Origin: an uncultured Bacilli bacterium
Lineage (GTDB): Bacteria; Bacillota_I; Bacilli_A; RF39; UBA660
Assembly: GCA_934101115.1 (NCBI GenBank)
Contig: CAKOPW010000005.1
Location: 18,697 to 82,696 of the forward strand
Direction of reading: 5' to 3'
DNA: 64,000 bases
In this document: one piece after another, positions 7,704-45,336 of the stretch
Layout of the letters: every line of letters starts with the position of its first letter
How positions within the stretch are numbered: the first letter of the stretch is position 1
Program-made: the position numbers and the translations under genes
Notes under the pieces: generated by a model
Seen by the model: only the letters and a program-made list of their open reading frames with translations
The model's database searches: none
Told to the model about the DNA's origin: nothing

Positions 7704-7712
7704 GAATGACTT

Positions 7713-26942: not shown

Positions 26943-27020
26943 TTTTTATTTACAATAATTTTTTTTAATGGTAAAATGGTTATAGAAGAGAATAGAAGGT
27001 TTTTAAAAAGAGGTGTAATT

Positions 27021-27542
27021 ATGGCATTAAATGATTTTAAAGATATGGTTGAGAATGCTAGAAAAATAAAAGGTTATTCACAACGAGAATTAGCTAAAAT
27101 GATTGGAATGAGCCAAAGTACATATAATGATACAATTAATGGTAAAATTAAAAAACCAGATATAGATATATTAAAAAAAATTGCTGAGGAGTTAGATTTA
27201 TCTTTAGATTTAATGCTTAAAGAATCAGGATATGGTGAATCATTTTCTATATACGGAATTGATAAATATAAAAATAAATCCACTAAGGATTTAAAAAATT
27301 TAATTGATGAATATAAGAAGTCAGAACTTAAATTATTAGAATTTGATAAACAAAAAAGAGATGTTACTAGGAAAGCAAGGCAAAAAATGTTCACTACAAT
27401 TGAACATATGAAAATAATAAAAGATAGTAAAGATGGTTTATATACAATTGATAAAGCAATTGATGATGTTCAATCTGCATTTGATCAATTAGAAATGGTA
27501 GAACATAAATATGATTATAAAAAGCTACCTAAAGACTTATAA
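27021..27542 (+). CDS. XRE-family HTH regulator (candidate R-M controller protein)
   Basis: HTH GYSQRELAKMIGMSQSTYNDTINGK. First gene of the R-M operon, with a coiled-coil C-terminal extension. Confidence 0.7.
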   Translation: MALNDFKDMVENARKIKGYSQRELAKMIGMSQSTYNDTINGKIKKPDIDILKKIAEELDLSLDLMLKESGYGESFSIYGIDKYKNKSTKDLKNLIDEYKKSELKLLEFDKQKRDVTRKARQKMFTTIEHMKIIKDSKDGLYTIDKAIDDVQSAFDQLEMVEHKYDYKKLPKDL

Positions 27543-27556: not shown

Positions 27557-29605
27557 ATGAAAAAGAAAAAATATAATGTAATTGATTTATTTGCAGGATG
27601 TGGGGGATTATCAGAAGGATTTCTACAATCCGAAAGATTTAATTTTTTAGCTCATATTGAATGGGAAATGCCAATGGTTGAAACTTTAAGGAATAATCTT
27701 GTTAAAAGATGGAACTACTCAAAAGAAGATGCTGAAAAATCAGTAATAAGATTTGATATACAAAAAACTGAGGAATTATTTAAAGGTAATTGGTCAGACG
27801 ATTCAATAAAAGATTATGGTGAAGATAATAATAAAGAAATAGTTGAAAAAGGAATGGATAACTTGATTGGTGATAAGAAAGTTGATGTTATTATTGGTGG
27901 ACCGCCTTGTCAAGCATATTCACTAGCAGGAAGAGCTCAAAGCCCAAATTCAATGAAAGATGATTATAGAAATTACTTATTTGAGAGCTTTGTTAAAGTA
28001 GTTGATCATTATAAACCTAAAGTTTTCGTTTTTGAAAATGTTCCAGGAATATTAAGCGCAAAGCCAGGAGATAAATTAGTAATAGATAGAATTTATGAAG
28101 CATTTGAAAAGATAAATTATGAAATAAGAAATCCAAAAATGCTTAAAAATGCGATTTATTCTGCTGCAGATTTTGAAACGCCTCAAGATAGACATAGGGT
28201 CATTATAATAGGAGTAAGAAAAGATTATAAAGATAATCCGGAAGATTTTTATCTAGCTTTAGATGAATTAAAATCAAAGCATCCAAAGAAAACAGTTAGA
28301 GATGCCATTGGAAATTTACCTAAATTCAAGCCTTTGGTCGAACCTAGAAAAGGTAAAAATGGTAATATATCACATGAATTAATTGGTAATGAAATTATTC
28401 CTGATCATGAAGCAAGATATAATAATTTAAGAGATATTGAAGTATTTAAAAAATGGATTAAAAATAATATGAATTCTTATACTACTGAAGAAAAGCTTAA
28501 ATTTTATACAGAAACAACTGGTAAAAAGAGCAACCATAATAAATATAGAAATTTAGATTGGGATAAGCCATCTCCAACAATTGTATCTCATTTATATAAA
28601 GATGGTTTAATGTTTATACATCCAGATGAAAAACAAGCTAGATCAATAACTGTTAGAGAAGCTAGTTTACTACAAGGATTTCCTATAGATTTTGAATTTC
28701 TTGGTTCAAATGCATACAAATACAAAATGATAGGAAATGCTGTACCTGTTCAATTTGCTAAAAATATTTCATTAGCATTATGTAATGTTCTTGATGAAGA
28801 TGATTCTAATAATATTTGTTGTGCAAAAAAGAAAGATGATGTTTTAACACTAAAAAATAATAGACCAAAAAGAGTATTAAACGTTTTGGTTGCATGTGAA
28901 GAAAGTCAAAGAGTTTGTACAGAATTTAGAAGATTAGGACATAATGCATATAGCTGTGACTTACTTAATTGCAGTGGTGGACATCCTGAATGGCATTTTA
29001 ATATGGATGTTTTAAAGGTAATTAAAGATAAAGGTGGAATTTTAGAAAATGGTGAAAAGGTAAAAATAGATGGTGATTGGGATTTAATGATAGCTCATCC
29101 ACCCTGCACGTTCTTAGCTGTAAGTGGTGCAAAATGGTATTATCACCCTGATGATAAAGGTTTACCAATTGAACAAAGAAGACCTCATCCCAAATTTCCA
29201 AATAGAGCTCAAGATAGAGAAGATGGTGCTAATTTCTTTATAGCATTAGCTACTGCTAATATAAAATATATTGCAGTGGAAAACCCTATAGGTATAATGA
29301 GTAAAAGATTTAGAAAACCGGACCAAATAATTCAACCATATTGGTTTGGTGATCCATTTTCCAAAGCAACATGTCTATGGTTGAAAAATCTTTCGCCATT
29401 AAAGCCAACAAAAATGGTTGATAAAGGTGAATATGTGGAATTAAAAAGTGGTAAAAGATTACCAAAATGGTATTCAGATGCATTAACAAAAGCAAAAACA
29501 CCAGAAGAAAGAAGAACTTTAAGAAGTAAAACATTCCCAGGCTTTGCTAAAGCTATAGCAGAACAATGGAGTAAGGAGATATTAGAAAATGAAAGTATAT
29601 GTTAG
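27557..29605 (+). CDS. DNA (cytosine-5)-methyltransferase with a second, minimal C5-MTase-like catalytic core fused at the C-terminus
   Basis: Domain 1 (aa 1 to about 410) carries motif I DLFAGCGGLSEGF, IV GGPPCQAYSLAGR, VI FVFENVPGIL and X IGNAVPVQFAK. Domain 2 (aa about 440 to 682) carries DLMIAHPPCTFLAVSG, IAVENPIG and FPGFAKAIAEQW. Confidence 0.85.
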   Translation: MKKKKYNVIDLFAGCGGLSEGFLQSERFNFLAHIEWEMPMVETLRNNLVKRWNYSKEDAEKSVIRFDIQKTEELFKGNWSDDSIKDYGEDNNKEIVEKGMDNLIGDKKVDVIIGGPPCQAYSLAGRAQSPNSMKDDYRNYLFESFVKVVDHYKPKVFVFENVPGILSAKPGDKLVIDRIYEAFEKINYEIRNPKMLKNAIYSAADFETPQDRHRVIIIGVRKDYKDNPEDFYLALDELKSKHPKKTVRDAIGNLPKFKPLVEPRKGKNGNISHELIGNEIIPDHEARYNNLRDIEVFKKWIKNNMNSYTTEEKLKFYTETTGKKSNHNKYRNLDWDKPSPTIVSHLYKDGLMFIHPDEKQARSITVREASLLQGFPIDFEFLGSNAYKYKMIGNAVPVQFAKNISLALCNVLDEDDSNNICCAKKKDDVLTLKNNRPKRVLNVLVACEESQRVCTEFRRLGHNAYSCDLLNCSGGHPEWHFNMDVLKVIKDKGGILENGEKVKIDGDWDLMIAHPPCTFLAVSGAKWYYHPDDKGLPIEQRRPHPKFPNRAQDREDGANFFIALATANIKYIAVENPIGIMSKRFRKPDQIIQPYWFGDPFSKATCLWLKNLSPLKPTKMVDKGEYVELKSGKRLPKWYSDALTKAKTPEERRTLRSKTFPGFAKAIAEQWSKEILENESIC

Positions 29606-31172
29606 AAAAATTGATGATCAATGTGTAACTCATCAAATTAGTTTGAAAAATATTGTATTTAAGGAATTCTTTAATGAGTTAAATAAATTCGAAGTTTCAG
29701 GAGTAAAAAGTGGTTATAGTGAAATGGTCAGTATTTTACCAGCAACTGATTTGAGATTTGATTCTGGATTGAAACATGTAATATCAAGAGAAGGTAATCT
29801 AGAAGTTGGCGATGTTATTGTTTTATATAAAGAAGCTGATAAGTATGAATTAGAGCTAATTAAGCCTACTGATTCAAAGTATACTTTTGTACAAGAATTA
29901 TGTGAGAGAGACAAAAGACATACTTTGCTTGATATTGAATCCAATGAAATCAAAAATGTTGATAGAAAAGAAGAATATAAAAATTGGTTAGTCAATAAAG
30001 GTAAATATACTGATGAAACTATAAAGAATTATGTAAGATATATATCTTATATTTATGATAAAGGTTTAAGCGATAAAGATTTATATACAATTAAGGATAC
30101 ATTAATCATTGATGAATTATTATCAAAATTTAAAAATCAAGAAGAATATATTCAATATAATGAACAAAATAACAGAAATCCATATTATGCTTTGTTACAA
30201 TATAAAGAATTTATTGAAAATACAAATACGCATAAGATTGATGATGTTGATAGATTAGTTGGAGCATATAATAAAATTTATTATGGAATTCCTGGAAGTG
30301 GAAAAAGCTATACCGTTGATGCTAAATTTAATGAAGAAGAATATAAAGTATTTAGAACTACTTTTCACCCTGAATATACAAATAGTGATTTTGTAGGGCA
30401 AATTATTCCTATGGTAAAAGATGATAAAGTAAAATACGAATTTCATCCTGGATCATTTACGCTTGCATTAAAATATGCATTAGAGAATAAAAATAAAAAA
30501 GTATGCTTAATAATAGAAGAAATTAATAGAGGTAATGCTTCTGCAATCTTTGGTGATATATTTCAGTTGCTAGATAGAACAGAAAAAGGAAGAAGTAAGT
30601 ATGAAATATATAACGGTCCTATTCTAGATTATTTTGAAAAAAATGGTATTAATATGAATAAAATATATATTCCATCTAATATGTGGATTATATCTACTAT
30701 GAATACAAGTGATCAAAATGTATTTACTTTAGATACTGCATTTAAACGTAGATGGAAAATGGAATATATAAAAAATGTATTTGCTGATGATGAAAAATCA
30801 AAAGAATTAAGAAATAAGGTTATTCCTTTAGGAGAAAAATATCCTAATGTAACATGGGAGAAATTTGTTAACAAAATAAATAATCATATTATTTCTGATA
30901 CATCAGGAATAAATGGTGAAGATAAACAGCTTGGTATGTATTTTGTTTCTGTTGAAGAAATTAATGATCCAAAAGAATTTGCTGAAAAAATTTTGTCTTA
31001 TTTATGGGAGGATGTTGCAAAATTAAATACTTCATATTGGTTTGGATCAATATCTTCCTATGATGAATTAATCGATTTATTTAACAAAAATTCTTTAGAT
31101 ATATTCAATTCACTATTTGATGATGAAATTAAAGTAACAGAAGAATATACAATTAAAACCGTAGGAGAATAG
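29589..31172 (+). CDS. McrB-family AAA+ GTPase restriction subunit (LlaJI R1-like)
   Basis: GIPGSGKSYTV Walker A, IEEINRGNASAIFGD, and the McrB signature WIISTMNTSDQNVFTLDTAFKRRW. About 230 aa of N-terminal DNA-binding region is unassigned. Confidence 0.8.
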   Translation: MKVYVRKIDDQCVTHQISLKNIVFKEFFNELNKFEVSGVKSGYSEMVSILPATDLRFDSGLKHVISREGNLEVGDVIVLYKEADKYELELIKPTDSKYTFVQELCERDKRHTLLDIESNEIKNVDRKEEYKNWLVNKGKYTDETIKNYVRYISYIYDKGLSDKDLYTIKDTLIIDELLSKFKNQEEYIQYNEQNNRNPYYALLQYKEFIENTNTHKIDDVDRLVGAYNKIYYGIPGSGKSYTVDAKFNEEEYKVFRTTFHPEYTNSDFVGQIIPMVKDDKVKYEFHPGSFTLALKYALENKNKKVCLIIEEINRGNASAIFGDIFQLLDRTEKGRSKYEIYNGPILDYFEKNGINMNKIYIPSNMWIISTMNTSDQNVFTLDTAFKRRWKMEYIKNVFADDEKSKELRNKVIPLGEKYPNVTWEKFVNKINNHIISDTSGINGEDKQLGMYFVSVEEINDPKEFAEKILSYLWEDVAKLNTSYWFGSISSYDELIDLFNKNSLDIFNSLFDDEIKVTEEYTIKTVGE

Positions 31173-31173
31173 T

Positions 31174-32433
31174 ATGAAATTTTCCGATAAAGTAATTTTC
31201 AAAAATGGATATGAAGAAGACAATTTTGTTGGTATAAAATATAGAAAAGATAAAATTAATATCTTTTTACCTATCGGATATAACAAGGATTATTTTAGCA
31301 CAGATGATGAGTTAAGTCCTGAACAAAAAGTGGATTTATTATTATTACTAAAGACTATTACACTAGTTAAAAATTCTAATAATGAAAAAACTGATTTTGG
31401 TGATGATATAGGGAATAACGATGAAGTCCCATATAATTCATTAATATGGATTATAAATGACTATTTTAACAATGGATTATATCAAGAAATCGAAAAAAAA
31501 TACTCTCAAAAAAGTCATGGTAAAATTAATTGGAAAAAAACACTTAATTCAGAGCATTACTTTGAAAACAATAGTGTTACATATATTAATCCTTATTATG
31601 AATCAAATATACAAAGGAGTACTTTAATAACTGAACTTAATAATTATTGTGTTCATAAAAGTTATAAATATATAGGATTTCTATTTGGAAAAGTATATCT
31701 TCCGGAATGTAATATTAGAGAAGAAAGAATTAAAGATAATATTAAATACTATATTGATGTTATTAATAAAGAATTAGCAAAATCTTTTAATGATAGAAAA
31801 AAAATGTTGTTAACTAATATGAAAAGGATTTTTGAAATGTCTTTTGAAGATAGTTTTGAGAATCAACCAACATATGGAACAAGGCGATATGAATATGCTT
31901 GGGAAAAAATGGTAAATGAAACTCTTGGATCTAAAATTGATATTAGTAAGTTTTTTCCTAATGCTTTTTGGAATATACAAGGTAAGATTGAAGAAGATAA
32001 ATCAAAATTAAGACCAGATTCTATTTTGATAGATAATAATTCAAAAAAATTATATATACTTGATGCAAAGTATTATAAATATGGAATTACTAGTAATATT
32101 TCTGATTTACCACATACTGATTCAATTCAAAAACAAATAACATATGGGGATCATATATCAAATAATCCGCACACATATGGTTTTGAAAAAAATAATATAT
32201 ATAATGCATTTATTATCCCATTTAATAAAAACAAAGAACCTTTTAAATGTGATGAGAGCATAAAATATATGGGATTTGCAAATAGTGCATGGAGAGATAA
32301 AAAGGAAACATATAATTATGAACGAATTTCTTTATTATTAATTGATACAAAATATATGATAGATTGTTTTTATCAAAAAGAACGTGCTAATCTTGAACAA
32401 TTAATTGAATTGATAGAAAAATCTTCATTATAG
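31174..32433 (+). CDS. McrC-like PD-(D/E)xK nuclease subunit (LlaJI R2-like)
   Basis: LRPDSILIDNNSKKLYILDAKYYK, a PD..D-x-K motif. Translationally coupled to the McrB-like gene. Confidence 0.7.
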   Translation: MKFSDKVIFKNGYEEDNFVGIKYRKDKINIFLPIGYNKDYFSTDDELSPEQKVDLLLLLKTITLVKNSNNEKTDFGDDIGNNDEVPYNSLIWIINDYFNNGLYQEIEKKYSQKSHGKINWKKTLNSEHYFENNSVTYINPYYESNIQRSTLITELNNYCVHKSYKYIGFLFGKVYLPECNIREERIKDNIKYYIDVINKELAKSFNDRKKMLLTNMKRIFEMSFEDSFENQPTYGTRRYEYAWEKMVNETLGSKIDISKFFPNAFWNIQGKIEEDKSKLRPDSILIDNNSKKLYILDAKYYKYGITSNISDLPHTDSIQKQITYGDHISNNPHTYGFEKNNIYNAFIIPFNKNKEPFKCDESIKYMGFANSAWRDKKETYNYERISLLLIDTKYMIDCFYQKERANLEQLIELIEKSSL

Positions 32434-32624
32434 ATGTTTTGCGTCACTCGCGTCACTTAAATGTATAGGGTGCTCACCTAAAAATAAGTGTCATAAAAAA
32501 ATAGATATGTTAAAAAAACATAACATATTTAATAAGTACGTTAAAAAAGCATATATAAGATTAATTTATATATGTTTTTATATGTTATAATATATATAAT
32601 TATTTATTCTTAGGGGGAATTTGT

Positions 32625-35345
32625 ATGGATGAAAGTATTAACTTCATTAATCGGAAAATTAATGATTTGAATATTAAGATAGAAAAAAATATAGACGATT
32701 CTGTTGATAATAGGGGCTATATGTCTCAAAATATCATAAAGAGTTTAAGAGATTTAGTAGAATATATAGCATTTAAAGTATATGTAATTGAGAATAGAAA
32801 GTGTTATCTTGATTATAATCATGTTAATACTGGCTTAGCAATAAAATATATTAAATGTTTAAGTAAACATGAAATACTAAAGAACTTTCATGCTTTATTA
32901 GAAATTGGTCCTTCACATAATAGTTATAGTGAGGATGGCTCAATTAGATTAATGGTTAAATATCAAGAGTATCTTATTGATCTAAAAAGATATTATTTTG
33001 ATTTGTTTAAAGAAAAAATATTAACAAATTTATATAAATTTCCCATATTTAAAATAGACTCATCTTTATACGATTATTATAAAGAAATATATAATAAGTT
33101 AATTCAAATAAAATTTGATAATAGTGAACGAGTTTTAGGTAACGCATATTATATTAAGAAAACAAAACCTGTCGCAATAGAAGATAGAGTTTTTTATGAA
33201 TTAACATTAACACCAGCTACCGACTATGTTAATAAATTTAATAGAATTATTTTTTATTCCCCAGTTAGAATTCCGGATAATTATGCTATTAAAATAGGCT
33301 ATGTAAGGAAAAATATAAAATCATTTAAATCAGAAGTAGAAATCAAGATAATTAATAATTATGAGATATTTATCAAACCGGCCGAAATAAATAGTTTGTA
33401 CAAAATATTTGGTATTAATAAAAGAGTATCATATCGTGCAAATGAATATGATTATTTTATGCGATTATTAAAAAATAATCGTTGGACATTAAATCATATT
33501 ATTAATTTGAATGATGATGGATTTGAAATAATTAGACAGGAGTCATCAGTTTATAATACTCATCATTTGTTTGAATTGTTAGAAATGATAAGAAATGTTA
33601 TTACTAACAATAAACCTGGTCACAATGTTTTAAACTACTTAATACATGTATTGAGAAATTCTGTAGTTATTGATCAAATAGGTGATGAGCAATGTAAAAT
33701 ACTATCAGATTTATATCTAGAGTATGGATGTAATGTTTTTGAAACTATGCCATATGCTTCTTCATTAAATGGTCATAAAATATCTGTATCAGATTTATTT
33801 GAAATAATTGATCCAGTAAATAGAGAACATGAGTTCTTTGGAAGAAAGATAACTGATTTATGCAATTCGACAAATAGGATTTATTTTTCTTTTAAGGAAT
33901 TAGGTTATGATTCAGAATATGGTAAAAAACTTATAAAAGAATTTAATAAGCGCGTTTATTACAAACATACAGATAGATATTTAGAAACAATTGGAAATAA
34001 AGTCTATATAAGAGGATTTGAAGAAAGTACGATAAAAATTATAGATGTTTTAAAAAGTAAAACTAATGAAAAATATTCTGATTATAAAAATATGTATGAT
34101 ATGTTTTCAATTTTTAGCGATTATGAATTTACTGATAGTATCAAGAAAAATATTTCTGAAAAAATATATATTAATTCAAAAGTTGGTTTAATATATGGCT
34201 CTGCAGGAACAGGCAAAACTGAAATGATTAAAATAATATCTAAAATATTTGATGGTAAAAGAATTGCTTTTTTAGCCAAAACTAATGCTGCTCTAAACAA
34301 TATTAAAATTCGAGTTGGTAAAGAAGCAATGGATAACTATGAATTTTATACTATTGATAAATTTATTGATGATTCTATAAGAGATAGTTATGATTTAGTT
34401 GTTGTGGATGAGTGTAGTATGGTAGAGAATGATATAATGCTTCAAATGTTAAAGAAAAACAATTATGATTGCTTACTATTAGTTGGTGATATATATCAAA
34501 TTGAAGCAATTGAGTTTGGTAACTGGTTTAGATTTGCAAAGGAATTGATTCCTGAAAATTCATATGAACTAACTGAAAATTTTCGAACTACGAATCATGG
34601 ATTAAAGAATTTATGGTCTAAAGTAAGAAATTTAGATGATGGCATTACCGAGAAAACAATTGATGAAGCTTATTCAGAAATATTAAGTGAATCAATATTT
34701 GAAAATAGAGAAGATGAAGAAATTGTTCTATGCCTTAATTATGATGGCCCATATGGGATTAATAATATAAATAGATATTTGCAGATGACAAATAGAAATG
34801 AACCAATAGAATGGGGAATAAATACATATAAGGTTGGAGATCCAATTATATTTAGTGATGTAAGGAGATTTTCTAATGTTTTATATAATAATCTTAAAGG
34901 AAAAATTCTAAAAATTGAAAAGAATGAAGACAGCATAACTTTTGAATTATTTGTGGAAAGAAGAATTTCTGATTTCGATGCCTTTGCAAATAACATTAAA
35001 GTTATTTCTAGGGAAGATGATGGATCGGTTATAGAAATAAAGGTATTACGAAAGGATGATGATGATAAAGATGATGAAGTAGGATATATTGTTCCTTTCA
35101 CGGTATCCTATGCTACATCTATACATAAATCGCAAGGTTTAGAATTTGATTCTGTTAAAATTATTATTTCTGATGAGTCCGAAGAATTAATTACTAAAAA
35201 TATATTTTACACTGCAATAACTAGGTCTAAAAATCATCTTAAAATATATTGGAGTCCAGAATGTCAAAATAAAGTAATAAAGAACATGAGGGATTATACT
35301 TTAAAAGATGATTTAATTATTATAAAAAATAAAATGAAAAACTAA
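32625..35345 (+). CDS. SF1 helicase (RecD/TraA-like, AAA_30 plus UvrD_C) with about 500-aa uncharacterised N-terminal region
   Basis: Walker A GLIYGSAGTGKTEM, Walker B LVVVDECSMV, and C-terminal motif VSYATSIHKSQGLEFDSV. Nothing recognised in aa 1-500. Confidence 0.7.
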   Translation: MDESINFINRKINDLNIKIEKNIDDSVDNRGYMSQNIIKSLRDLVEYIAFKVYVIENRKCYLDYNHVNTGLAIKYIKCLSKHEILKNFHALLEIGPSHNSYSEDGSIRLMVKYQEYLIDLKRYYFDLFKEKILTNLYKFPIFKIDSSLYDYYKEIYNKLIQIKFDNSERVLGNAYYIKKTKPVAIEDRVFYELTLTPATDYVNKFNRIIFYSPVRIPDNYAIKIGYVRKNIKSFKSEVEIKIINNYEIFIKPAEINSLYKIFGINKRVSYRANEYDYFMRLLKNNRWTLNHIINLNDDGFEIIRQESSVYNTHHLFELLEMIRNVITNNKPGHNVLNYLIHVLRNSVVIDQIGDEQCKILSDLYLEYGCNVFETMPYASSLNGHKISVSDLFEIIDPVNREHEFFGRKITDLCNSTNRIYFSFKELGYDSEYGKKLIKEFNKRVYYKHTDRYLETIGNKVYIRGFEESTIKIIDVLKSKTNEKYSDYKNMYDMFSIFSDYEFTDSIKKNISEKIYINSKVGLIYGSAGTGKTEMIKIISKIFDGKRIAFLAKTNAALNNIKIRVGKEAMDNYEFYTIDKFIDDSIRDSYDLVVVDECSMVENDIMLQMLKKNNYDCLLLVGDIYQIEAIEFGNWFRFAKELIPENSYELTENFRTTNHGLKNLWSKVRNLDDGITEKTIDEAYSEILSESIFENREDEEIVLCLNYDGPYGINNINRYLQMTNRNEPIEWGINTYKVGDPIIFSDVRRFSNVLYNNLKGKILKIEKNEDSITFELFVERRISDFDAFANNIKVISREDDGSVIEIKVLRKDDDDKDDEVGYIVPFTVSYATSIHKSQGLEFDSVKIIISDESEELITKNIFYTAITRSKNHLKIYWSPECQNKVIKNMRDYTLKDDLIIIKNKMKN

Positions 35346-35479
35346 TAAGTATATACATATGTATGTGCTTTTTTGTATTAAAATATATTCATTGAATATT
35401 ATAATAATATACCGATAGCGGTATAAATATATTGAAAAATCATACTGGCAACGGTATAATGTAATTAGAGGTGAAAATT

Positions 35480-36406
35480 ATGGAATTTATGACTACAAAA
35501 GAAGCTGTACAAAAATGGAATGTTAGTGAAAGAAGAATACGAAAATTATTACTAGATGGAAGAATTGAAGGTGCTGTAAAAGTAGGTAATAATTGGAATA
35601 TTCCTATTAATGCTAATAAACCAGCTGATAAAAGAAGCATGAAATTAGATAATACTGAATTTAAATTTGATTTACCTGATAATTATTTTGATAAAGTTGA
35701 TGAATTAAATAAAGAATTAAATTCTAAAAGACCTATATCAAAAGAAACATTAAAATCTTTAAAAGAATCTATAAATTTAGAGTGGACTTATAATAGTAAC
35801 GGTATAGAAGGAAATACACTAACTTTAAGAGAAACACAAGTCGTTTTAGAAGGTATTACAGTTGGTGGTAAATCTTTAAAAGAACATTTGGAAGCTATTA
35901 ATCATGAACAAGCAATATTATTCTTAGATGATCTTATTAAGGATAAAGAACCAATCACAGAATGGAATATTAAAAATATTCATCAATTAGTATTAAAAGA
36001 AATAGATAATGATAACGCTGGTAAATATAGAGATGAAAATGTAAAAATAAAAGGTGCTACACATATTCCACCAGATTATTTAATTGTTCCTGAATTAATG
36101 GAAAAATTAATTATTAAATATGAAGATTGGAAAAAATATCATCCAATTATTAGAGCAGCATTATTACATGGAGAATTAGTTAAAATACATCCATTTGTTG
36201 ATGGTAATGGCAGGACTTCAAGATTAGTTATGAACTTATCTTTAATGAATAGCGGATATCTTCCAGTAATTGTAAAAAAAGAAAAAAGATTAGAATACTA
36301 TAATGCTTTAGATAAAGCACATACTACTGGGAATTATACAGATTTTGTTAAATTAGTTAATGAATTAGAAATTGAAATGTTAAATAAATATTTAGAACTG
36401 TTATAA
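35480..36406 (+). CDS. Fic/DOC-family protein with N-terminal HTH
   Basis: Fic motif HPFVDGNGRTSRL. N-terminal excisionase/MerR-like HTH KEAVQKWNVSERRIRKLL. Confidence 0.85.
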   Translation: MEFMTTKEAVQKWNVSERRIRKLLLDGRIEGAVKVGNNWNIPINANKPADKRSMKLDNTEFKFDLPDNYFDKVDELNKELNSKRPISKETLKSLKESINLEWTYNSNGIEGNTLTLRETQVVLEGITVGGKSLKEHLEAINHEQAILFLDDLIKDKEPITEWNIKNIHQLVLKEIDNDNAGKYRDENVKIKGATHIPPDYLIVPELMEKLIIKYEDWKKYHPIIRAALLHGELVKIHPFVDGNGRTSRLVMNLSLMNSGYLPVIVKKEKRLEYYNALDKAHTTGNYTDFVKLVNELEIEMLNKYLELL

Positions 36407-36817
36407 AAAATAGCGAGAAAAAATATTTCTTGCTATTTTTTTAAATAAACAAAACAAATGTTCTGATACATGTTGCTTAAAACTAATTTGTGTGTTAATA
36501 TGATAGTGTTATAAGCGGACACGAAAAAAACATGTTATAAACATGTTCGCTTGTACTGGTAGCTGGTAACTACCGATAAGAATTAAATTGCCTTTCGGCT
36601 TACACAAAACGAGAACAATGAATTGATTAACAACACGACTCCTATTCTCATTTATAATGATACACAAAAAATGTTTTTGTGTCAATGGGTATAATAACAG
36701 AAGTTTACATATTAGTCAATTCTGAAAGGAGGATTAATATGTTTTTTAATTATTTATTATAGTATTTAGGTAAAGTAGTTACCAGTTATCTCAAATTTGA
36801 AGTAAGGAGAGATAAAC

Positions 36818-37567
36818 ATGACAAGAAAAATTTTAAAAAATATTTTTGATAACTTAGAACAGTCATTATTTAATGATATGAATATACGTATTGAGCATGA
36901 TTTAGAGGATGGTAAATATAGAGAATATTTAGTTAAAAATGTCCTTGAAAAAATTATACCTTCAAAATATAGTATTACAAATGGTTTTATTATTGATAGT
37001 GATAATAATATATCCGATGAAATGGATATAATTATATATGATAGAAATTATGTGCCACCTTTTTTTGATGAAACTTATACTGTAGTACCAATAGAGGCAG
37101 TAATTGTAGTAATACAGGTTAAAACCACACTAACTGCATCTACATTAAAAAATAGTATCACAAATTTAAACTCAATTGATAAACTTAATGCTAAAACTGG
37201 TGGAAAAATAATATCTGCAACATGTGACTTAATTGAGGAAAAGAGATATATTTGTCCATACAAAGTTATAGTAGCTTCTAAGACTGATTATGTTGATGAA
37301 CATGATTTTGCAAGTGATATGAAAAATATTGATATTATTTATATTGTTGAAAAAGATAAATCATTAACCGTAAAGCATAAAAAAAATATAAAAGCTGTTG
37401 TTTGTGAAAATAAAGAAGAACTAATAAAAAATCAAAGCAACTATGAATTAGAAGTGATTAAAGAAAGTAGATTAGCATTTTTTGCTTTGAATTTATTGGA
37501 AAAGATGAAACTAATAAATAATTCAATCATAATTAATTATGAAGAATATATAAAGGGGGCTAAATAA
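36818..37567 (+). CDS. PD-(D/E)xK-like nuclease-fold protein (candidate effector)
   Basis: DIIIYD...IEAVIVVIQVK resembles a restriction-endonuclease-like core. About 130-aa C-terminal region is unassigned. Overlaps the next gene by 1 nt. Confidence 0.35.
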   Translation: MTRKILKNIFDNLEQSLFNDMNIRIEHDLEDGKYREYLVKNVLEKIIPSKYSITNGFIIDSDNNISDEMDIIIYDRNYVPPFFDETYTVVPIEAVIVVIQVKTTLTASTLKNSITNLNSIDKLNAKTGGKIISATCDLIEEKRYICPYKVIVASKTDYVDEHDFASDMKNIDIIYIVEKDKSLTVKHKKNIKAVVCENKEELIKNQSNYELEVIKESRLAFFALNLLEKMKLINNSIIINYEEYIKGAK

Positions 37568-38490
37568 TGAGTAATTCATTGACTGAAGATTTTAATAAGT
37601 TTGTAGAAATTATTTCGCTAAATAGTAAAGAAGAAGAGGATATTAAAAGTAAACATAATAGTCTTATCAATATGATTATTGCTGATCCACCAAAAGGCTA
37701 TAATATTGTTAAAACAAGGCTTAGTGGTTCATATGCAAAGCATACAGTTTTAAATGAATATAACGTGGATAAACTACCAGATGTTGATATTATTACAATT
37801 ATAGATTCTTGTGATAAAAGTGTAGATGAGATAAATGCTGATTTTTTAAACTATTTTGAAGATAAAAAAGGTAAAGTAACTTCAAATATTAGGCAGCAAT
37901 CTAATTCTATTGGAATAATATATTCTAATATAAGCGTTGATATGGTAATTGGTATTCTTAAAGATGACAAATTAAAAATATGTTCTAATAAAAAACATGA
38001 TTGGATATCATCGAATGCCTTGATACATATTGATTACATGATAAAAAAGAATAAAGAATATGAAGGATTCAGTTATTATAGTTTAATGAAACTTTTCAAG
38101 TATTTAAATAAAGAACAATTGAATAATAAATTAAAGTCATATACATTAGAACAATTGATTCATAAATGTTGTCCAATTCCAACAGTAGGATTAAGATTAT
38201 ATCAAGCATTTGCTAAGACACTTGATAATATAAAAGAAATATCATTAATTACGGAAATTAGAGATTGTTGCGATGAAGATAAGGATGGTTATGATGAAAA
38301 AGATGTATTGATATTTGATTCCTTTAAAGAAGAAATTGCAAATTACTCTAGTTTAGCAAAAGAAGCATTAGATGGTAACAGAAAAAAATGGCAAGAGATA
38401 TTTGGAGATAGGTTTCCATGCCAACCAAATGAAATAGTAAAGAATGAGGCAAATTATGACAAAAGTCATACACCATGGTGTTATAAATAA
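37567..38490 (+). CDS. SMODS/CD-NTase-like nucleotidyltransferase
   Basis: Pol-beta NTase signature LSGSYAKHTVLNEYNVDKLPDVDIITII, i.e. GS...DxD. Confidence 0.5.
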   Translation: MSNSLTEDFNKFVEIISLNSKEEEDIKSKHNSLINMIIADPPKGYNIVKTRLSGSYAKHTVLNEYNVDKLPDVDIITIIDSCDKSVDEINADFLNYFEDKKGKVTSNIRQQSNSIGIIYSNISVDMVIGILKDDKLKICSNKKHDWISSNALIHIDYMIKKNKEYEGFSYYSLMKLFKYLNKEQLNNKLKSYTLEQLIHKCCPIPTVGLRLYQAFAKTLDNIKEISLITEIRDCCDEDKDGYDEKDVLIFDSFKEEIANYSSLAKEALDGNRKKWQEIFGDRFPCQPNEIVKNEANYDKSHTPWCYK

Positions 38491-38941
38491 AAAAAATATA
38501 GAAATATCTATAAAAAAATATGACTTTAAGATTCTTGATTATAATGAAAATAATGAATACATAAAAACAATTATTGAAAAAGATTACGCAAAAAGTTTTA
38601 ATATAGATTTTAATGGGATAATTAAAGTAGAATGTATAATAATGCGTAAGATGTATGATATGTTTTGTGTTTATACGTATCCAAAATTTAAAGAAATATC
38701 TAATATAATTCCAAAGAAGGCATTTTATCATATGTACGAAGATGGTAGTATTTGTTATGCGCCTCCTAAAAGACCATTGGTTGAAAAATGGAGTTTAGAA
38801 GATTTTATAAGTTCTATAGATTCCTTTTTTCATAACTATTTTTCGATTGAATATATTGGAGAAGGCGAATTATTTCAACTTGAACATGGTGAAAAAGGAT
38901 TAATACAATATGAATTTATTTATAGAGTTTCAGAAAATTAA
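38444..38941 (+). CDS. small E2 (UBC-fold)-like protein
   Basis: HMYEDGSICYAPP resembles the E2 HPN...G.IC active-site region. 165 aa. Overlaps the upstream gene. Confidence 0.4.
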   Translation: MRQIMTKVIHHGVINKKNIEISIKKYDFKILDYNENNEYIKTIIEKDYAKSFNIDFNGIIKVECIIMRKMYDMFCVYTYPKFKEISNIIPKKAFYHMYEDGSICYAPPKRPLVEKWSLEDFISSIDSFFHNYFSIEYIGEGELFQLEHGEKGLIQYEFIYRVSEN

Positions 38942-38949
38942 GTGTTGAT

Positions 38950-38998
38950 AAAAAAAGAGCATATATAGCTACGTGAGCTATATATGCTTTTCTTATGT
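38950..38998 (+). terminator. rho-independent terminator after the three-gene cassette
   Basis: agcatatatagctacgtgagctatatatgct followed by tttctt. Confidence 0.55.
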
Positions 38999-39402
38999 CT
39001 GCTCAGTTTCTGCACAACAATTTAGTTACATTTTGCTGTGCAAGATTGAATATTTTTAAACTATTTATCTTGAAGCAGTTGATTTTAAAGGGATTATACA
39101 GGTATGATTTATCCATTGCATTATGCCCATTGGAGAGAGCGAAAACTCTCATTTTGGAAGTATAATTTCTTCTTTTATTTATATAAACAACCATATTTTT
39201 ATCATTTAAAGAAACAAGAATTATTATAAAATTGTTCAATTTTTAGAAAGTCATTTTTTTTTACACTATATTCCGAGTTTCTAACTTGCTTATATCTTGC
39301 TTAAATTCTATCTAAAGTACAATATTCCATATCTATTGCTATGTTTATACGTATTTAAATAATGACTTTTTGCTAAAAAATTGATACAATAAAATTAGAA
39401 AG

Positions 39403-39995: not shown

Positions 39996-40760
39996 ATGAA
40001 TAAAAAAAATTTAGAAACAATAATTTTATTAATAATTATACTTGTCTTAATTTCAATTATTTTTGTTTTAATTAAAAATAAAAATGATAATAAGCAAGAA
40101 CCAAAACAAGAAACATATGTTGCATACGTAAAAATTAATCCTTTGGTAAAACTTACATTTGATGTGAATTATGAATGTAATAAAGAAAATAAATGTGAAC
40201 CAGTAGATAATAAAATCACTAACATTGATTTACTAAACGATGATGCTAAAAATATATACTCTGATTTAGAATATAAGAATAAAAGTTTAGAATTAGTAAT
40301 TGCATCATTAATAGATGTTGCAGATCAAAACAACAAAGATATCAGTAAAGTAACTGTTACTTCAAATTATGAATTTGACAAAGAAGATTTAACAAAAAAA
40401 ATATTAGATAATTTGACATCGACTAAAAGTGTTGAAATAGGTTATAACTATCAAAAAAATATTGATGAAAGCAGTTTGATGGAAAAAACTTCTGCAAAAA
40501 CAACTACAACAACTACAGAAAAAACTACAACTAAATGTGTAAGTAAAAAATTTAAAAAGAAATTCACTTATGCTTATAAAACACAAGAAGAATGTAAAAA
40601 GCAAGGAAATAATGACTTCAATAATATGACTGACAATGTTGATGATAGCATTTTCTCATATGGATGTGAAGCTGTTAAAGATGACTGTGGAAACACATGG
40701 TATGGAGTAGTTTTCTATAAATGGTCAGAAGAAAAAGGAGAATATCCATATTATTACTAA
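39996..40760 (+). CDS. membrane-anchored secreted protein with Thr-rich linker
   Basis: N-terminal TM, TTTTTEKTTTK tract, C-terminal Cys-containing domain. Confidence 0.4.
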   Translation: MNKKNLETIILLIIILVLISIIFVLIKNKNDNKQEPKQETYVAYVKINPLVKLTFDVNYECNKENKCEPVDNKITNIDLLNDDAKNIYSDLEYKNKSLELVIASLIDVADQNNKDISKVTVTSNYEFDKEDLTKKILDNLTSTKSVEIGYNYQKNIDESSLMEKTSAKTTTTTTEKTTTKCVSKKFKKKFTYAYKTQEECKKQGNNDFNNMTDNVDDSIFSYGCEAVKDDCGNTWYGVVFYKWSEEKGEYPYYY

Positions 40761-40827
40761 AATTAGCTTAATCGCTAATTTTTTTATATTTTTATGTTAT
40801 ACTCTAAATATAAAAGGAGAATCATAA

Positions 40828-41268
40828 ATGAAAAGTGTCGAATTAAGGAAAGAACCAAATGACAATTTTAGAAATTGGATTATAGAAGAGTGGAAGCATC
40901 ACAATACGGTTGATCCATTTTATCAATTAAAAATAATAAAACCACAGGATTTAACTTTTAATGATAATGAAGAATATTATAAAATCATATATGAGAAACA
41001 AGAAATTGGGTTTATAGGCTTAAAAGTATATGATGATGAGATTTATATATATCGTTTTCTTATTGATAAAAAATTTAGAGGAAAAGGCATTGGAACCGAA
41101 GTATTAAATTTAATAATTGATCGCGCAAGGTATGAAAACAAAGATATTTCATTAGATGTATTTGAAAAAAATGAAGCAAAGAAATTATACGAACGAGTTG
41201 GATTTAAGAATCGTTATACAAACATGGTAATAAAAGTTAATGATAATATTGAATATAAAGAAAGGTAA
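40828..41268 (+). CDS. GNAT-family N-acetyltransferase
   Basis: FRGKGIGTEVLNLIIDRA acetyl-CoA binding motif. Confidence 0.7.
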   Translation: MKSVELRKEPNDNFRNWIIEEWKHHNTVDPFYQLKIIKPQDLTFNDNEEYYKIIYEKQEIGFIGLKVYDDEIYIYRFLIDKKFRGKGIGTEVLNLIIDRARYENKDISLDVFEKNEAKKLYERVGFKNRYTNMVIKVNDNIEYKER

Positions 41269-41271
41269 AAT

Positions 41272-42351
41272 ATGAAAAAGAATATATTAATAATAATTAT
41301 AGTTTTAGTAATTCTAGTTGGAGGTATTTATCTAGTCTTTATTTCAAAAAAACAACATGCTAATACAGAAACCACTGGAGTTTTAGTAGTACCAACATTT
41401 ATTGATAAAATAGATAATGATGCTGCTTGGTGTGCAACTTTTAATTTAATATGGAATGATTTGAAAAATGATCTAGTGAAACAAGACATTAAATTTGAAC
41501 AAGATAATACTTATGTTAACAATTTAAATAAAGAACTTTTTAAAGAAAGCGATATTTCAAACGACTACTATTATAAAGTATATGGAAAGAAGACATTAAA
41601 ATTAAAAAGTGAAATAGAAAAGAACATTAAAGAAAAGTTTGATCAAACTAGTGATATATTAGATAAATTTGATTGGAGTGAAGATTCATTAGATAATGGT
41701 AGCAGCGGTCTTGAAAGATATATTTTCTACACTATGCTATATCGTGAATTTAAATATAAAACAAAGTTTGTGAAGTTGAACGAAGATAAATTTAATAATG
41801 TAGAAAATGTTAAATATTTTGGTGTTAAAGATAATAAAGAGTCTTATAAGAATCAAATAAACATTATTTACTACAATAACGAAGATGATTTTGCAATTAA
41901 ATTAACTACAACAAGTAATGATGAAATTATTATAAATAAAAATCCAAAAGGAGATAATTTTGAAGAAATTTATAACAACATTATAATCACAGGTTCAAAA
42001 TATAAAGGAAATAAAGAATTTACTAAATTAGATAATTTTAAAATGCCATATATTAATTTAAATGTATTAAAAGAATATAATGAGTTAGAAAATAAAAAAT
42101 TTTATGACAAAGATAATAATACCTTAATCATAGATAAAGCTTTACAAACTATAAAATTTGAACTTGATGAAAATGGTGGAAAAATTAAAAGTGAGGCAGG
42201 CATGGATGTTGTTAAATTTTCGGCATCGAATCCTAAAGAAAAATCAAAAAATTTAAATGTTACTAAAACATTTGCAATATTTTTAAAAGAAGATTCTAAA
42301 GATAAACCATACTTTGCAGCTAAAATAGGTGACATTAGCAAATACCAATAA
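41272..42351 (+). CDS. membrane-anchored protein, possibly serpin-like
   Basis: N-terminal TM. C-terminal ...KTFAIFLKEDSKDKPYFAAKIGD resembles the serpin C-terminal signature. Weak. Confidence 0.3.
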   Translation: MKKNILIIIIVLVILVGGIYLVFISKKQHANTETTGVLVVPTFIDKIDNDAAWCATFNLIWNDLKNDLVKQDIKFEQDNTYVNNLNKELFKESDISNDYYYKVYGKKTLKLKSEIEKNIKEKFDQTSDILDKFDWSEDSLDNGSSGLERYIFYTMLYREFKYKTKFVKLNEDKFNNVENVKYFGVKDNKESYKNQINIIYYNNEDDFAIKLTTTSNDEIIINKNPKGDNFEEIYNNIIITGSKYKGNKEFTKLDNFKMPYINLNVLKEYNELENKKFYDKDNNTLIIDKALQTIKFELDENGGKIKSEAGMDVVKFSASNPKEKSKNLNVTKTFAIFLKEDSKDKPYFAAKIGDISKYQ

Positions 42352-42481
42352 TACCTTAATTTATAAACAATTGTAAGTAGTCTTTACATTTTAGTATAAA
42401 TATGATAATTTAATATTGACGACGAGAGCAATGCAAAAAGCATTTATGTTTTGCATGCTCTCTTTTTTGTGAGGTAAAAGT

Positions 42482-43267
42482 ATGTTGATTATATTGTTTT
42501 TATTTATAGTTTTTTCTATTTTTTTTATAAAGTATGTAAAAAGATGTGATTATATTGAAAGGTTAATAGCATTAGCGCTTGTTTTTTCTACGCTTGTTCC
42601 TCTAGCAATATATTATTCAGATTGGTTTAATTTACCTGGCAGATTAGGTTTTTTAGACAATATTGATTCAAATCGATGGTTTAATTTAGCTTCAGACTAT
42701 ATCATAACAATAATTGGAACTATTCTGAGTAGTTCTGTTGTAATTTTAACGACAATTCATCAGTTTCAAAAACAAACTGAAGAAAATAATAACAATAACA
42801 GAATAGCAAACATGCCTTTATTCAGATATGAGATAATGAATAAATATGAAAGTAATAAAGTAAATAGTGTTGACATTACTAATGAATCAAGTGATGAAAT
42901 AAAACTTTATTATTTAAACATAAATGTAAATAACGTAGGCCTAAATCATGCTAGAAATATAAAATATATTATATATTTAGATGATAAAGAAAAGACTCAA
43001 AATAATCTAATTAATCCACAATCAATTTTAAAAAACAATGATGATTGGAATTTAAATATAGTATTAAATCTTCCATTTTATAGAAAAAATAGTACAAACG
43101 AACATAAGGCAAAAATTATTTTTTATTATGAAGATTTACTTAGTAATAGATATAGTCAAGAGTTAACTTTGTATGTGGAAACCACCTTAGAATCGGCATC
43201 CTCATTTTCTGGATATTTGTTGTATATAACAAATATAGTAATAGAAGAAGAAAAGTATTTAAAATAA
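42482..43267 (+). CDS. membrane protein, hypothetical
   Basis: Three predicted TM segments at the N-terminus. No motif recognised. Confidence 0.35.
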   Translation: MLIILFLFIVFSIFFIKYVKRCDYIERLIALALVFSTLVPLAIYYSDWFNLPGRLGFLDNIDSNRWFNLASDYIITIIGTILSSSVVILTTIHQFQKQTEENNNNNRIANMPLFRYEIMNKYESNKVNSVDITNESSDEIKLYYLNINVNNVGLNHARNIKYIIYLDDKEKTQNNLINPQSILKNNDDWNLNIVLNLPFYRKNSTNEHKAKIIFYYEDLLSNRYSQELTLYVETTLESASSFSGYLLYITNIVIEEEKYLK

Positions 43268-43298
43268 GTATAAATAATAATAAAAGAAGGGTAAAAAA

Positions 43299-44966
43299 AT
43301 GAAAAAAATTGATAAATCAAAATATGTTGTTTTGGATGTTGAAACAAATGGACTATCATCAATAAATTGTGATCTATTATCAATCTCAATTTATAGCCCA
43401 GATAATCAAAAAAAGTATAATAGATTTTTACCACTGGAATTAAATGATTGTGTTTTAACAACCGGAATTAACGGAATAACAGAAGAAATGTTATTAAATA
43501 AATCTGCAATGAGTCAAGAAGAATTTAATATACTTATTAAGGATTTTGACTTAGAAAATCGTATAATTCTTCATTATGGTTCTATAGACGAAAAGTTTAT
43601 AAAAAATTATTTAAAAAGGAAAAAAATAAAAGGTTTTGAAAAATTAAAATTTTATAATATTAAACACAATATTATCTCTTCTAAGTTTTCAGAAGGTAAT
43701 ATTACAAAAGATAATCTTTGTGAACTTTATAGTATAGAAAATGTAACAAAAGTTCATTCAGGAATTAATGATTGTATTCTGGAGTGGAAACTTTTTGAAA
43801 AAATGAATGATAATAAGCTATTGGTAACAGGAAATAATGTTTATGAGTTTAATGAAGATTATATAATCCCAGCAAACTTTTTGCAAAATTATCCGAATTT
43901 TAAGTATCAAATTAAAAATTATCCTTGTATATATTATAATCTTGAGAAACTTGAGTCATTTATAGTTGATTCTAACCTTGTAAAAAAATTTAGTACAAAT
44001 ATAAGCGGTATAACAATAGAACATTTAATTAATAGCATGTTACATGTTGATGATAAAAGTTATGAAAATTTTGAATTTCTTGTGAATAATAAAACTAAGT
44101 TAAAAAAAATTGGAAATTTAAAATCCAATATAAAAACTATTTATATTATGAAAAATGAAGATGGTACAATTTCCGCACAAAATAAAAAAGATGGAAAAGA
44201 AGTAGAACAAATAAATCATGTTACAAACATTATTAAAGAGCAAATTGAGCCGTTAATTGATTATATTAAAATAAATATTTTTAACAATAAAAAAGTAATG
44301 TCTCAAGAATTAGTAATTAATTATGAAGATAATGTATTAGCAATGTGTGATTTATCAACGGATGACAAAATTTTAGAAATAAAAATTAGTAATATGGATG
44401 TAGATAAAATTAGATATCAGTTATTTTATGAGTCAAAGGGTAGAGAAATATTTTTATTGAAAACAAATTGGGAATTTTCATCAAAAAATAGACTAAAGTT
44501 TGTTATATATAAAGCTATACCTGTTTACAATAAAGTATATACAACTAAAAAAAATAATAATAAACTAAGACGTCAATTAGAATCTAAAATTAGAAATAAA
44601 AACGTGGAAATTGTTGAATATACAAATCAGCATTCAAATATAAAACTAAAATGTAAATTATGTGGAAATGAGTGGATATCATCTTATGACAAAATTTTAA
44701 AAAAACCATATTGTTTAAATTGCATTGAGGTAACGCGACCATCAAATTATGAAGAGCGATTAATAGCAACTGCAGAAAAAGGTAAAAAAGGGTTATTAAA
44801 GTATCAAAATGAATTAAAATATAAAACTAATGGAAATTTAATAGCTATTAATTATCACGGTGAAAAAGAAAAACTAACAGTTTTCTGTAATAAATGTGGA
44901 AACTATTGGAAAGCAAAGGCTAACAAATTATTAGAAGATCCAAATTGTCCAAAATGTAAAATTTAG
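43299..44966 (+). CDS. DnaQ-like (DEDDh) 3'-5' exonuclease domain protein with two C-terminal C4 zinc ribbons
   Basis: Exo I VLDVETNG and Exo III HSGINDCILEW. C-terminal CKLCGNEW...CLNC and CNKCGNYW...CPKC. Confidence 0.6.
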   Translation: MKKIDKSKYVVLDVETNGLSSINCDLLSISIYSPDNQKKYNRFLPLELNDCVLTTGINGITEEMLLNKSAMSQEEFNILIKDFDLENRIILHYGSIDEKFIKNYLKRKKIKGFEKLKFYNIKHNIISSKFSEGNITKDNLCELYSIENVTKVHSGINDCILEWKLFEKMNDNKLLVTGNNVYEFNEDYIIPANFLQNYPNFKYQIKNYPCIYYNLEKLESFIVDSNLVKKFSTNISGITIEHLINSMLHVDDKSYENFEFLVNNKTKLKKIGNLKSNIKTIYIMKNEDGTISAQNKKDGKEVEQINHVTNIIKEQIEPLIDYIKINIFNNKKVMSQELVINYEDNVLAMCDLSTDDKILEIKISNMDVDKIRYQLFYESKGREIFLLKTNWEFSSKNRLKFVIYKAIPVYNKVYTTKKNNNKLRRQLESKIRNKNVEIVEYTNQHSNIKLKCKLCGNEWISSYDKILKKPYCLNCIEVTRPSNYEERLIATAEKGKKGLLKYQNELKYKTNGNLIAINYHGEKEKLTVFCNKCGNYWKAKANKLLEDPNCPKCKI

Positions 44967-45121
44967 TTATTCTAGTTAAATCAAAAATATAAAATATTTT
45001 TAAAAACTTGCATTATAAAAAATGCATGATATAATTTAATTGTAAAAGAAAGCGCTAGTATAGGCTTCCCTTAAAGGACTTATACTGCGCTTTTTTTGTT
45101 GTAGTAAGGAGGTGTAAAAAT

Positions 45122-45328
45122 ATGTATGATTTTAAAGATGTTGATTCTAGCAATTTGCAATCAATTGCTATATCAGGTAACGACTTAATAATAAGATTCG
45201 TTAATGGAAGAATATATAGATATTATGGAGCAGCAAAAGAATATAACAATCTTTTAAACGCAAATAGCAAGGGAACCTATTTTGCAAATTATATAAAAAA
45301 TGAATATAAACCAAAAGAAGAAAAATAA
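45122..45328 (+). CDS. KTSC-domain protein
   Basis: SSNLQSIAISGNDLIIRFVNGRIYRYYG...SKGTYFANYIK pattern. Confidence 0.5.
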   Translation: MYDFKDVDSSNLQSIAISGNDLIIRFVNGRIYRYYGAAKEYNNLLNANSKGTYFANYIKNEYKPKEEK

Positions 45329-45336
45329 GAAAGTTA

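Follow-up and report, generated by a model that had tools for sequence, protein, structure and literature searches.

What does a stand-alone helicase gene do in a run of defence genes when half of its product resembles no annotated protein? The question arises from a single gene in a 64,000-nt stretch of DNA from an uncultured Bacilli bacterium (assembly GCA_934101115.1, contig CAKOPW010000005.1, positions 18,697 to 82,696), hereafter called the window; the coordinates of the gene and its features are collected in Table 1. A first-pass annotation, made from the sequence alone, had described the 906-aa product as a RecD/TraA-type superfamily 1 helicase preceded by some 500 aa of no recognisable family. 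We find that the protein is a full-length member of an already catalogued family, PDC-S53, and not a new kind of protein: PADLOC-DB v2 model PDLC05035 matches it with E 1.6e-292 and 970.9 bits, aligning aa 8-905 with profile positions 4-895 of 900. Because an intact motor is joined to a family-exclusive N-terminal module, without a partner gene, in a cassette that lies among defence genes and is patchily distributed, we favour the reading that the gene encodes a candidate stand-alone, nuclease-free helicase acting against phages or other mobile elements. A role in defence of some kind, whether nuclease-free or through a cryptic nuclease, is likely; for the nuclease-free, stand-alone version specifically, we judge the balance to be about even.

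PDC stands for phage defence candidate, and PADLOC holds 145 such single- and multi-gene candidates, which were drawn from genes lying within BREX, DISARM and type I restriction-modification (R-M) systems (Payne et al. 2024, bioRxiv 10.1101/2024.01.29.577857). The name 'PDC-S53' was not found in searchable paper text, nor in Payne et al. 2024 or the supplements that we searched, and literature searches returned no paper on a characterised RecD-like single-gene defence and no published mechanism or domain description for PDC-S53. The window protein agrees with the catalogued family in its end-to-end match, its single-gene organisation and its association with R-M and other defence genes, with no structural difference between them. 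When a single genome was scanned for each species, a relative was encoded in at least 599 of them. The 80 loci that we kept come from Bacilli and Clostridia (Bacillota), Bacteroidota, Actinomycetota, Gamma- and Deltaproteobacteria (Pseudomonadota), Patescibacteria, Melainabacteria and one metagenome-assembled genome of Nanoarchaeota, and the distribution of the family is wide but patchy across phyla. Some family members in long contigs appear to be split or truncated, namely P0002 and P0098 (both on one 14,796-nt contig), P0012 (288 aa, on a 22.6-kb contig) and P0003 (385 aa), and their sequences suggest frameshifted or decaying copies. Decaying copies are common among costly defence genes.

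The reading frame itself is real, since an open reading frame (ORF) of 2.7 kb in DNA of 25% GC is far beyond chance and the product has more than 80 full-length homologues at 28-95% identity. GC content stays near 25% over the whole window, with the helicase gene no outlier in composition. In the C-terminal half, the Pfam domains AAA_30, Viral_helicase1, AAA_19 and UvrD_C_2 are confined to aa ~508-880, and the Walker A, Walker B and SIHKSQG motifs stand where the first-pass annotation had placed them, most of their residues being invariant in 83 homologues and the remainder nearly so. In addition, motif III of superfamily 1B (SF1B), GDIYQ, is found at 621-625 and motif VI, YTAITR, at 862-867, with their key residues likewise invariant. 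This half retains 44% mean identity to distant homologues. With its key motif residues unchanged across the family, the motor looks active, and by homology it would be expected to translocate 5'->3' on single-stranded DNA (ssDNA). Structure comparison by Foldseek placed D. radiodurans RecD2 first (3gpl_A, E 3.4e-21, template-modelling score (TM) 0.67), followed by E. coli RecD, Pif1 and Dda, each at probability 1.0, and by TraI (5n8o, E 2e-9). Matches among PDB sequences were to RecD2, RecD and Pif1, all on the helicase part, and PHROGs returned phrog_325, 'Dda-like helicase', at E 3.4e-39. RecD2 (PDB 3gpl/3e1s), RecD, Pif1 and T4 Dda share with the window protein the SF1B fold and motifs of its C-terminal ~390 aa (Foldseek E 3e-21 to 1e-12).

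Given that RecD2 and RecD are the best sequence and structure matches of this half, and that source databases label the homologues 'ATP-dependent RecD-like DNA helicase', the gene might be a housekeeping DNA-repair helicase, either a RecD2 paralogue that has diverged or else RecD as a subunit of exonuclease V. We regard this as very improbable. The NCBIfam model for RecD2 (TIGR01448) scored 126.3 bits against a cut-off of 500, reaching only from aa 457 to 889 on model positions 267-701, and that for the RecD subunit (TIGR01447) scored 109 bits against a cut-off of 310; the matches are limited to aa ~457-889. No counterpart to the 500-aa N-terminal module was detected in RecD2 or the other SF1B helicases. 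Whereas these are core genes, the PDC-S53 gene is sporadic across phyla and island-borne, and copies about 95% identical stand in differing flanks, unlike a vertically inherited core gene. An AddAB-like pair in the window (50480-55920) also speaks against a RecD partner role. The RecD subunit of RecBCD was rejected on its sub-cut-off score and the lack of an adjacent recB or recC, and a housekeeping RecD or RecD2 on scores far below the cut-offs, the AddAB-like pair and the sporadic, cassette-like behaviour of the gene.

The conjugative relaxase-helicases TraA_Ti and TraI have a similar helicase core (TIGR02768, 5n8o), the TraA_Ti model TIGR02768 matching aa 512-642, within the helicase part only, at E 1.5e-13 and 49.9 bits against a cut-off of 590. 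They possess a HUH relaxase domain, however, which the PDC-S53 N-terminus lacks, and the window has no transfer genes next to the helicase. A relaxase or TraA identity was rejected because Pfam, NCBIfam and Foldseek detected no relaxase domain on aa 1-500 and the TraA match is confined to the helicase. The N-terminal region, for which the first-pass annotation had considered a conjugative relaxase or a housekeeping accessory domain as the identities that would overturn its view, matches no relaxase and no recognised accessory domain of a housekeeping helicase.

Indeed, the N-terminal half proved as hard to place as first described. Residues 1 to ~500 had no match in Pfam (E ≤ 10, eight N-termini), NCBIfam or PHROGs, and none among PDB sequences by single-sequence or profile search; in PADLOC no model except PDC-S53 matched this half, the other PADLOC matches falling on the helicase half only. 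As a single query in a word-indexed search, aa 1-500 gave 12 matches, mostly fragments, and a profile of the N-terminus gave 101 proteins, 28-93% identical, of which nearly all non-fragments were 900-920 aa long and combined the same N-terminus with a helicase. An exhaustive HMMER search with this profile, covering 1.84 billion representatives, found 947 clusters (50% identity) at E ≤ 1e-3 and 380 at E ≤ 1e-30. All of the best 150 of the 947 matches were proteins of ~900 aa or shorter pieces, and the full-length ones share an architecture of ~905 aa; rare alternative fusions are possible among the ~800 matches beyond these. A profile of aa 1-251 recovered only fragments of the PDC-S53 family, and the N-terminal module was not seen with it in any other architecture.

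We modelled the protein with AlphaFold2 using an alignment of 83 sequences. For aa 1-512 the predicted local distance difference test (pLDDT) was 89.1 and the predicted TM score (pTM) 0.82. Because the full-length model is also confident (pLDDT 86.3, pTM 0.80), it suggests that the N-terminal module and the helicase form one compact body, not beads on a string. The module is predicted to consist of a helical domain, a five-stranded beta domain and an alpha/beta region, the last carrying the motif F-x-x-M-P-Y-A-S-S-L-x-x-H. The strands of the beta domain are modelled at 171-185, 188-197, 208-212, 222-233 and 236-248. This domain is the best-conserved N-terminal part, with 40% mean identity to distant homologues versus 29-32% for the others, and among the 83 homologues Y176 and K179 are near-invariant besides the three invariant residues of Table 1. 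Such conservation of tyrosine and lysine would be typical of an ssDNA-binding surface.

Comparison of the N-terminal model with known folds, which the first-pass annotation had proposed as a way to find a nuclease or sensor fold, gave no Foldseek match at E ≤ 1e-3 in PDB (350,542 chains) or BFVD. Below this threshold, 85-105-aa matches linked the beta domain to the ssDNA-binding protein SSB, PriB, Rim1, LEF-3, RPA, CST and TPP1, all at E ≥ 0.05; with oligonucleotide/oligosaccharide-binding (OB) folds in BFVD the probability reached 1.0, with TM 0.56-0.57 and a root-mean-square deviation of 3.1-3.3, again only at E ≥ 0.05. In the canonical OB topology a helix lies between strands 3 and 4, unlike the short helix of the beta domain, which is modelled between strands 2 and 3. 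The model of aa 171-250 weakly resembles OB-fold ssDNA binders.

With Foldseek against PDB and BFVD, the N-terminal model showed no fold recognisable as that of a nuclease or another effector. This bears on the view, put forward in the first-pass annotation, that the protein belongs to a recurring anti-phage theme of helicase-effector fusions: a helicase in a defence island is what we find, while the fused effector did not emerge. It bears equally on a second explanation, in which the helical or alpha/beta region is a cryptic nuclease or RNase and the protein a helicase-nuclease defence like Nhi or Hna, which would degrade nucleic acid of the invader or the host when the helicase engages and might act abortively. 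A near-invariant polar cluster in the helical domain (R30, S34, N36, R42, E46, H89, S97, H98, R108) could form an active site, as could the invariant Q351, H384 and N441 and the near-invariant E254, E274, R400 and E403 of the alpha/beta region, and single-protein helicase-nuclease defences do exist in Nhi and Hna (PMC10732053; PMC13381803). Searches of Pfam, NCBIfam, PADLOC and PHROGs returned no nuclease match even at lax thresholds, and the confident model showed no nuclease fold by Foldseek. On inspection, the conserved positions held no PD-(D/E)xK, HNH, GIY-YIG, PLD or Rx4-6H HEPN motif, and the conserved polar residues of the helical and alpha/beta regions formed no assignable motif. We therefore consider a cryptic nuclease unlikely.

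The surroundings of the gene point to a cassette. Downstream of recG, it is embedded in a series of defence genes, with a LlaJI-type R-M operon upstream and a Fic gene and then a CBASS operon downstream, which bears out its placement between an R-M operon and a Fic gene in the first-pass annotation. Equally, its description as a stand-alone gene with an AT-rich upstream region of its own agrees with the AT-rich spacer of 191 nt that separates the RE_LlaJI gene from the helicase ATG and with the absence of a partner across 80 loci described below. In two relatives, 85% identical (L001 and L003), DNA similarity to the window covers only 32547/32581..35333/35364, that is, the gene and the upstream spacer, and in a third, 94.6% identical (L004), it covers 32542..36405, the gene and Fic. 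Since similarity to all three begins at 32542-32581, ~45-85 nt upstream of the gene, the spacer travels with it; with L001 and L003 similarity stops at 35333-35364. The upstream cargo is a different C5-methylase and restriction endonuclease (REase) pair in L004, while L003 carries a GmrSD/HEC-06-like gene along with a methylase and an REase. The flanks of the near relatives thus hold other type II R-M systems or the GmrSD/HEC-06-like gene, and Fic or CBASS may be present or missing. The right-hand border of the window locus, 38949-39117 (a terminator hairpin and intergenic DNA), is found directly 3' of the helicase in L003 and after a different ORF of 933 aa in L004. Because the shared DNA is confined to the gene and its spacer while the surrounding cargo differs, the helicase gene behaves as a self-contained cassette in a variable, recG-adjacent defence hotspot.

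We additionally counted neighbours over the 80 loci of the one-genome-per-species scan. No partner gene was conserved: no neighbour family occurred in more than 11 of the 80 loci, and the positions of the commonest were variable. Serine recombinases were the most frequent (11 of 80), followed by type I R-M subunits (~10), Fic (8), C5 methylases (7) and N4/N6 methylases (5), and the nearest large neighbours also included MADS and LmuB (Lamassu) components, tyrosine integrases and helix-turn-helix (HTH) regulators. The defence genes next to relatives are type II R-M, the GmrSD/HEC-06-like gene, type I R-M, MADS and LmuB. Among the 29 tightly spaced same-strand neighbours, the only related ones belonged to near-identical lineages or formed one weak pair (E 1.8e-9). 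The PDC-S53 gene acts as a single-gene system without an obligatory partner.

A Fic gene adjoins the PDC-S53 gene in three independent lineages, represented by the window, L004 (10842-11774), L008/L012/L013/L016 (~6953-7885) and L020 (212-1138). On the same strand it is found either downstream or upstream of the PDC-S53 gene, it also occurs upstream on the opposite strand, and the adjacent Fic proteins of different lineages are ~30% identical. Fic was rejected as a partner on these three grounds, the small number of lineages, the differing position and orientation and the low identity, and we take its adjacency as a shared niche, or perhaps a loose functional pairing, and not as a system.

The presence of the family on mobile DNA raises a further explanation, namely that the helicase serves the replication, transfer or maintenance of mobile elements (integrative elements, plasmids and prophages), or is an anti-defence factor, and stands in islands only because islands are mobile. 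Recombinases and integrases are frequent neighbours, as given above, and two temperate phages carry a relative. Such copies are very rare, however: a relative is present in 2 of the 50,697 records for phages and in 5 of the 72,556 for plasmids, which would be unexpected for a core function in element replication. Both phage copies are transcribed opposite to the replication genes (primase, polymerase, exonuclease, SSB) and sit beside genes for methylases or type IIS R-M, where prophage-borne defence cargo is usually located. Moreover, no relaxase, Rep or primase domain is fused to the helicase or consistently adjacent to it, and in close relatives the cassette is swapped on its own at the chromosomal recG hotspot, amid cargo of R-M, CBASS and Fic genes, with no integrase in the block. 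On this evidence a mobile-element or anti-defence role appears quite unlikely.

The two phages, Terrisporobacter phage TPDSL_ph1 (L081 5137-9004) and Erysipelothrix phage phi1605 (L083 5122-8985), infect different hosts and carry a common three-gene cassette. It consists of a 278-aa hypothetical protein (83% identical between the phages, with a weak match to phrog_6948), the PDC-S53-like helicase and an HTH protein of 67-72 aa (78% identical), and one of the two records labels the small HTH gene 3' of the helicase a transcriptional repressor. The 278-aa protein, encoded upstream of the helicase, had no homologue in the 80 bacterial loci.

If the protein is indeed a stand-alone defence helicase, its action could be pictured as follows. 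The N-terminal module, most plausibly through its OB-like domain, would recognise ssDNA-containing replication or recombination intermediates of the invader, or a protein bound there, and would place the motor on that DNA. Driven by ATP, the motor would then move 5'->3' and unwind or strip the intermediates, so that phage DNA replication would be aborted or the DNA exposed to host nucleases such as AddAB or neighbouring restriction enzymes. The activity of the motor is itself taken as the effector because no nuclease or other killing domain was recognised. We infer ssDNA binding by the OB-like domain, the defence activity and the mode of action, and how the intermediates would be sensed and stripped is far less sure than the defence readings themselves. 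That the N-terminal module is a new architecture which senses the invader and loads an SF1B motor, giving a widespread nuclease-free and partner-free immunity in which the helicase by itself takes apart replication or recombination intermediates of the phage without cell killing, seems to us rather unlikely.

Known systems offer parallels for parts of this scheme. Nhi (Staphylococcus nuclease-helicase immunity) and Hna are likewise stand-alone defences in which a single polypeptide combines a helicase with an accessory module (PMC10732053; PMC13381803). Nhi, Hna and Hachiman, all systems that contain a helicase, are set off by SSB or replication complexes of the phage (PMC10732053), which for Nhi and Hna is, by analogy, the behaviour that we propose for the PDC-S53 protein. 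Nhi and Hna have a recognisable nuclease domain, however, whereas none was detected in the PDC-S53 protein. The helicase of Hna belongs to superfamily 2. A precedent for a motor as effector is provided by compact type III-A Druantia (DruE/DruH), which is reported to defend by recognising exposed ssDNA and clearing phage through directional duplex unwinding (bioRxiv 10.64898/2026.05.13.724758). Druantia comprises two proteins, and no sequence relationship to the PDC-S53 protein was detected; the likeness would be one of mechanism only.

Several observations weigh against a stand-alone, nuclease-free defence helicase. The paper that introduced the PDCs calls them untested (Payne et al. 2024, bioRxiv 10.1101/2024.01.29.577857), and no PDC-S53 member is known to confer protection from phages. 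The association with defence islands is guilt by association, and the prominence of serine recombinases and integrases among the neighbours fits element maintenance equally well. On the 10.7-kb mobilizable L. plantarum plasmid NZ_CP137848 (L082 1251-7320), the family gene directly follows the replication initiator and a DUF536 gene, an arrangement that also favours a mobile-element role and that looks, in this one context, more like plasmid maintenance than defence. Within the protein, the assignment of the OB fold rests on sub-threshold Foldseek matches (E ≥ 0.05), and the conserved cluster R42, E46, H89 and H98 of the helical domain could be catalytic. On NZ_CP137848 the PDC-S53 member is followed by genes for an ATP-binding protein of 502 aa and for a YafQ/Phd toxin-antitoxin pair.

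Table 1. Coordinates in the window of the PDC-S53 gene, its predicted parts and motifs, and the adjoining defence genes
Feature	Position	Strand	Basis and remarks
HTH regulator (HTH_3)	26976-27542		Upstream of LlaJI-type R-M operon
C5 methylase, 682 aa	27557-29605		LlaJI-type R-M operon
AAA_5 subunit (McrB-like)	29589-31172		LlaJI-type R-M operon
RE_LlaJI subunit	31174-32433		LlaJI-type R-M operon
Extended -10-like promoter element TGTTATAAT (TGnTATAAT)	32583..32591	+	Read from sequence, within AT-rich spacer
PDC-S53 family gene, complete, 906 aa	32625..35345	+	ATG start, 906 codons, TAA stop 35343-35345
All-helical domain, aa 1-165, six helices	32625..33119	+	Model m4d5e20133ded; conserved R42, E46, H89, S97, H98, Y113, D145, Y152
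Five-stranded beta domain, OB-fold-like, aa 171-250	33135..33374	+	Model; invariant Y191, K204, Y220
Alpha/beta linker region, aa 252-512	33378..34160	+	Model; invariant G332, Q351, F372, H384, N441
SF1B (RecD2/Dda/Pif1-type) helicase core, aa 513-906	34161..35342	+	Pfam, NCBIfam, PHROGs, Foldseek
Walker A GSAGTGKT, aa 525-532	34197..34220	+	Translation; G525, G528, G530, K531 invariant in 83 homologues
Walker B DECS, aa 595-598	34407..34418	+	Translation; D595, E596, S598 invariant in 83 homologues
Helicase motif V SIHKSQG, aa 832-838	35118..35138	+	Translation; I833, H834, K835, Q837, G838 invariant in 83 homologues
AT-rich palindrome ATACATATGTAT, then T6 run	35353..35374	+	Read from sequence, 3' of stop codon
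Fic (SoFic/PDC-S04-like)	35471-36406		Directly downstream of helicase
CBASS NucC-like endonuclease	36818-37567		DUF6602; PADLOC NucC E 1e-35
CBASS SMODS cyclase	37567-38490		
CBASS E2	38444-38941		Short ORF overlapping cyclase, matches E2 models

Of the expression signals of the gene, a GGGGG ribosome-binding site, read from the sequence, lies at 32613-32617 on the plus strand, 7 nt 5' of the ATG. A generic promoter scan called 34 sites versus 32 expected and is uninformative in DNA of 25% GC. The palindrome and T6 run 3' of the gene are a possible weak terminator and a possible end of the mobile cassette; a terminator scan, which needs at least three G-C pairs, did not call the palindrome and is likewise uninformative in such DNA. 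An Rfam scan of 24000-46000 gave no match, and the sole tRNA of the window, from a tRNA scan, is at 63155-63231, far outside the island.

The rest of the island can be described briefly. The variable hotspot spans 32542-39117 in the window, 7046-9985 in L003 and 7917-14751 in L004, with the helicase cassette and the right border kept. The compact CBASS operon just 3' of Fic (36818-38941) is absent from the same hotspot in L003 and L004. Further 3', at 39996-47244, lie ORFs of 254, 359, 261, 555 and 635 aa with no or weak Pfam or PADLOC matches, the 555-aa ORF showing a DEDDh-like N-terminus and a DUF4379 zinc-finger tail; going by their sequences, these could be further island cargo. The AddAB-like pair, on the minus strand, comprises a 1032-aa UvrD-type helicase and a 781-aa PDDEXK_1 protein, and a separate 476-aa UvrD-like helicase adjoins it (49057-55920 together, minus strand). 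These genes are probably housekeeping and mark the far side of the island.

As the family had already been flagged by PADLOC, the discovery is a modest one. The window contributes an intact PDC-S53 member whose natural setting is clean, a hotspot beside recG in which the R-M, Fic and CBASS cargo can be swapped, together with a domain map that names candidate residues for mutagenesis (K531; Y191, K204, Y220; H89, H98, H384). Half of the protein resembles nothing in PDB or in a library of predicted viral proteins and yet is predicted to fold with high confidence, and the role of so widespread a 500-aa module without a solved or annotated relative is moderately interesting. If the defence reading is true, PDC-S53 would add a single-gene system without a recognisable nuclease to the immune repertoire, and would offer a tractable system in which to study the targeting of foreign DNA by an SF1B motor.

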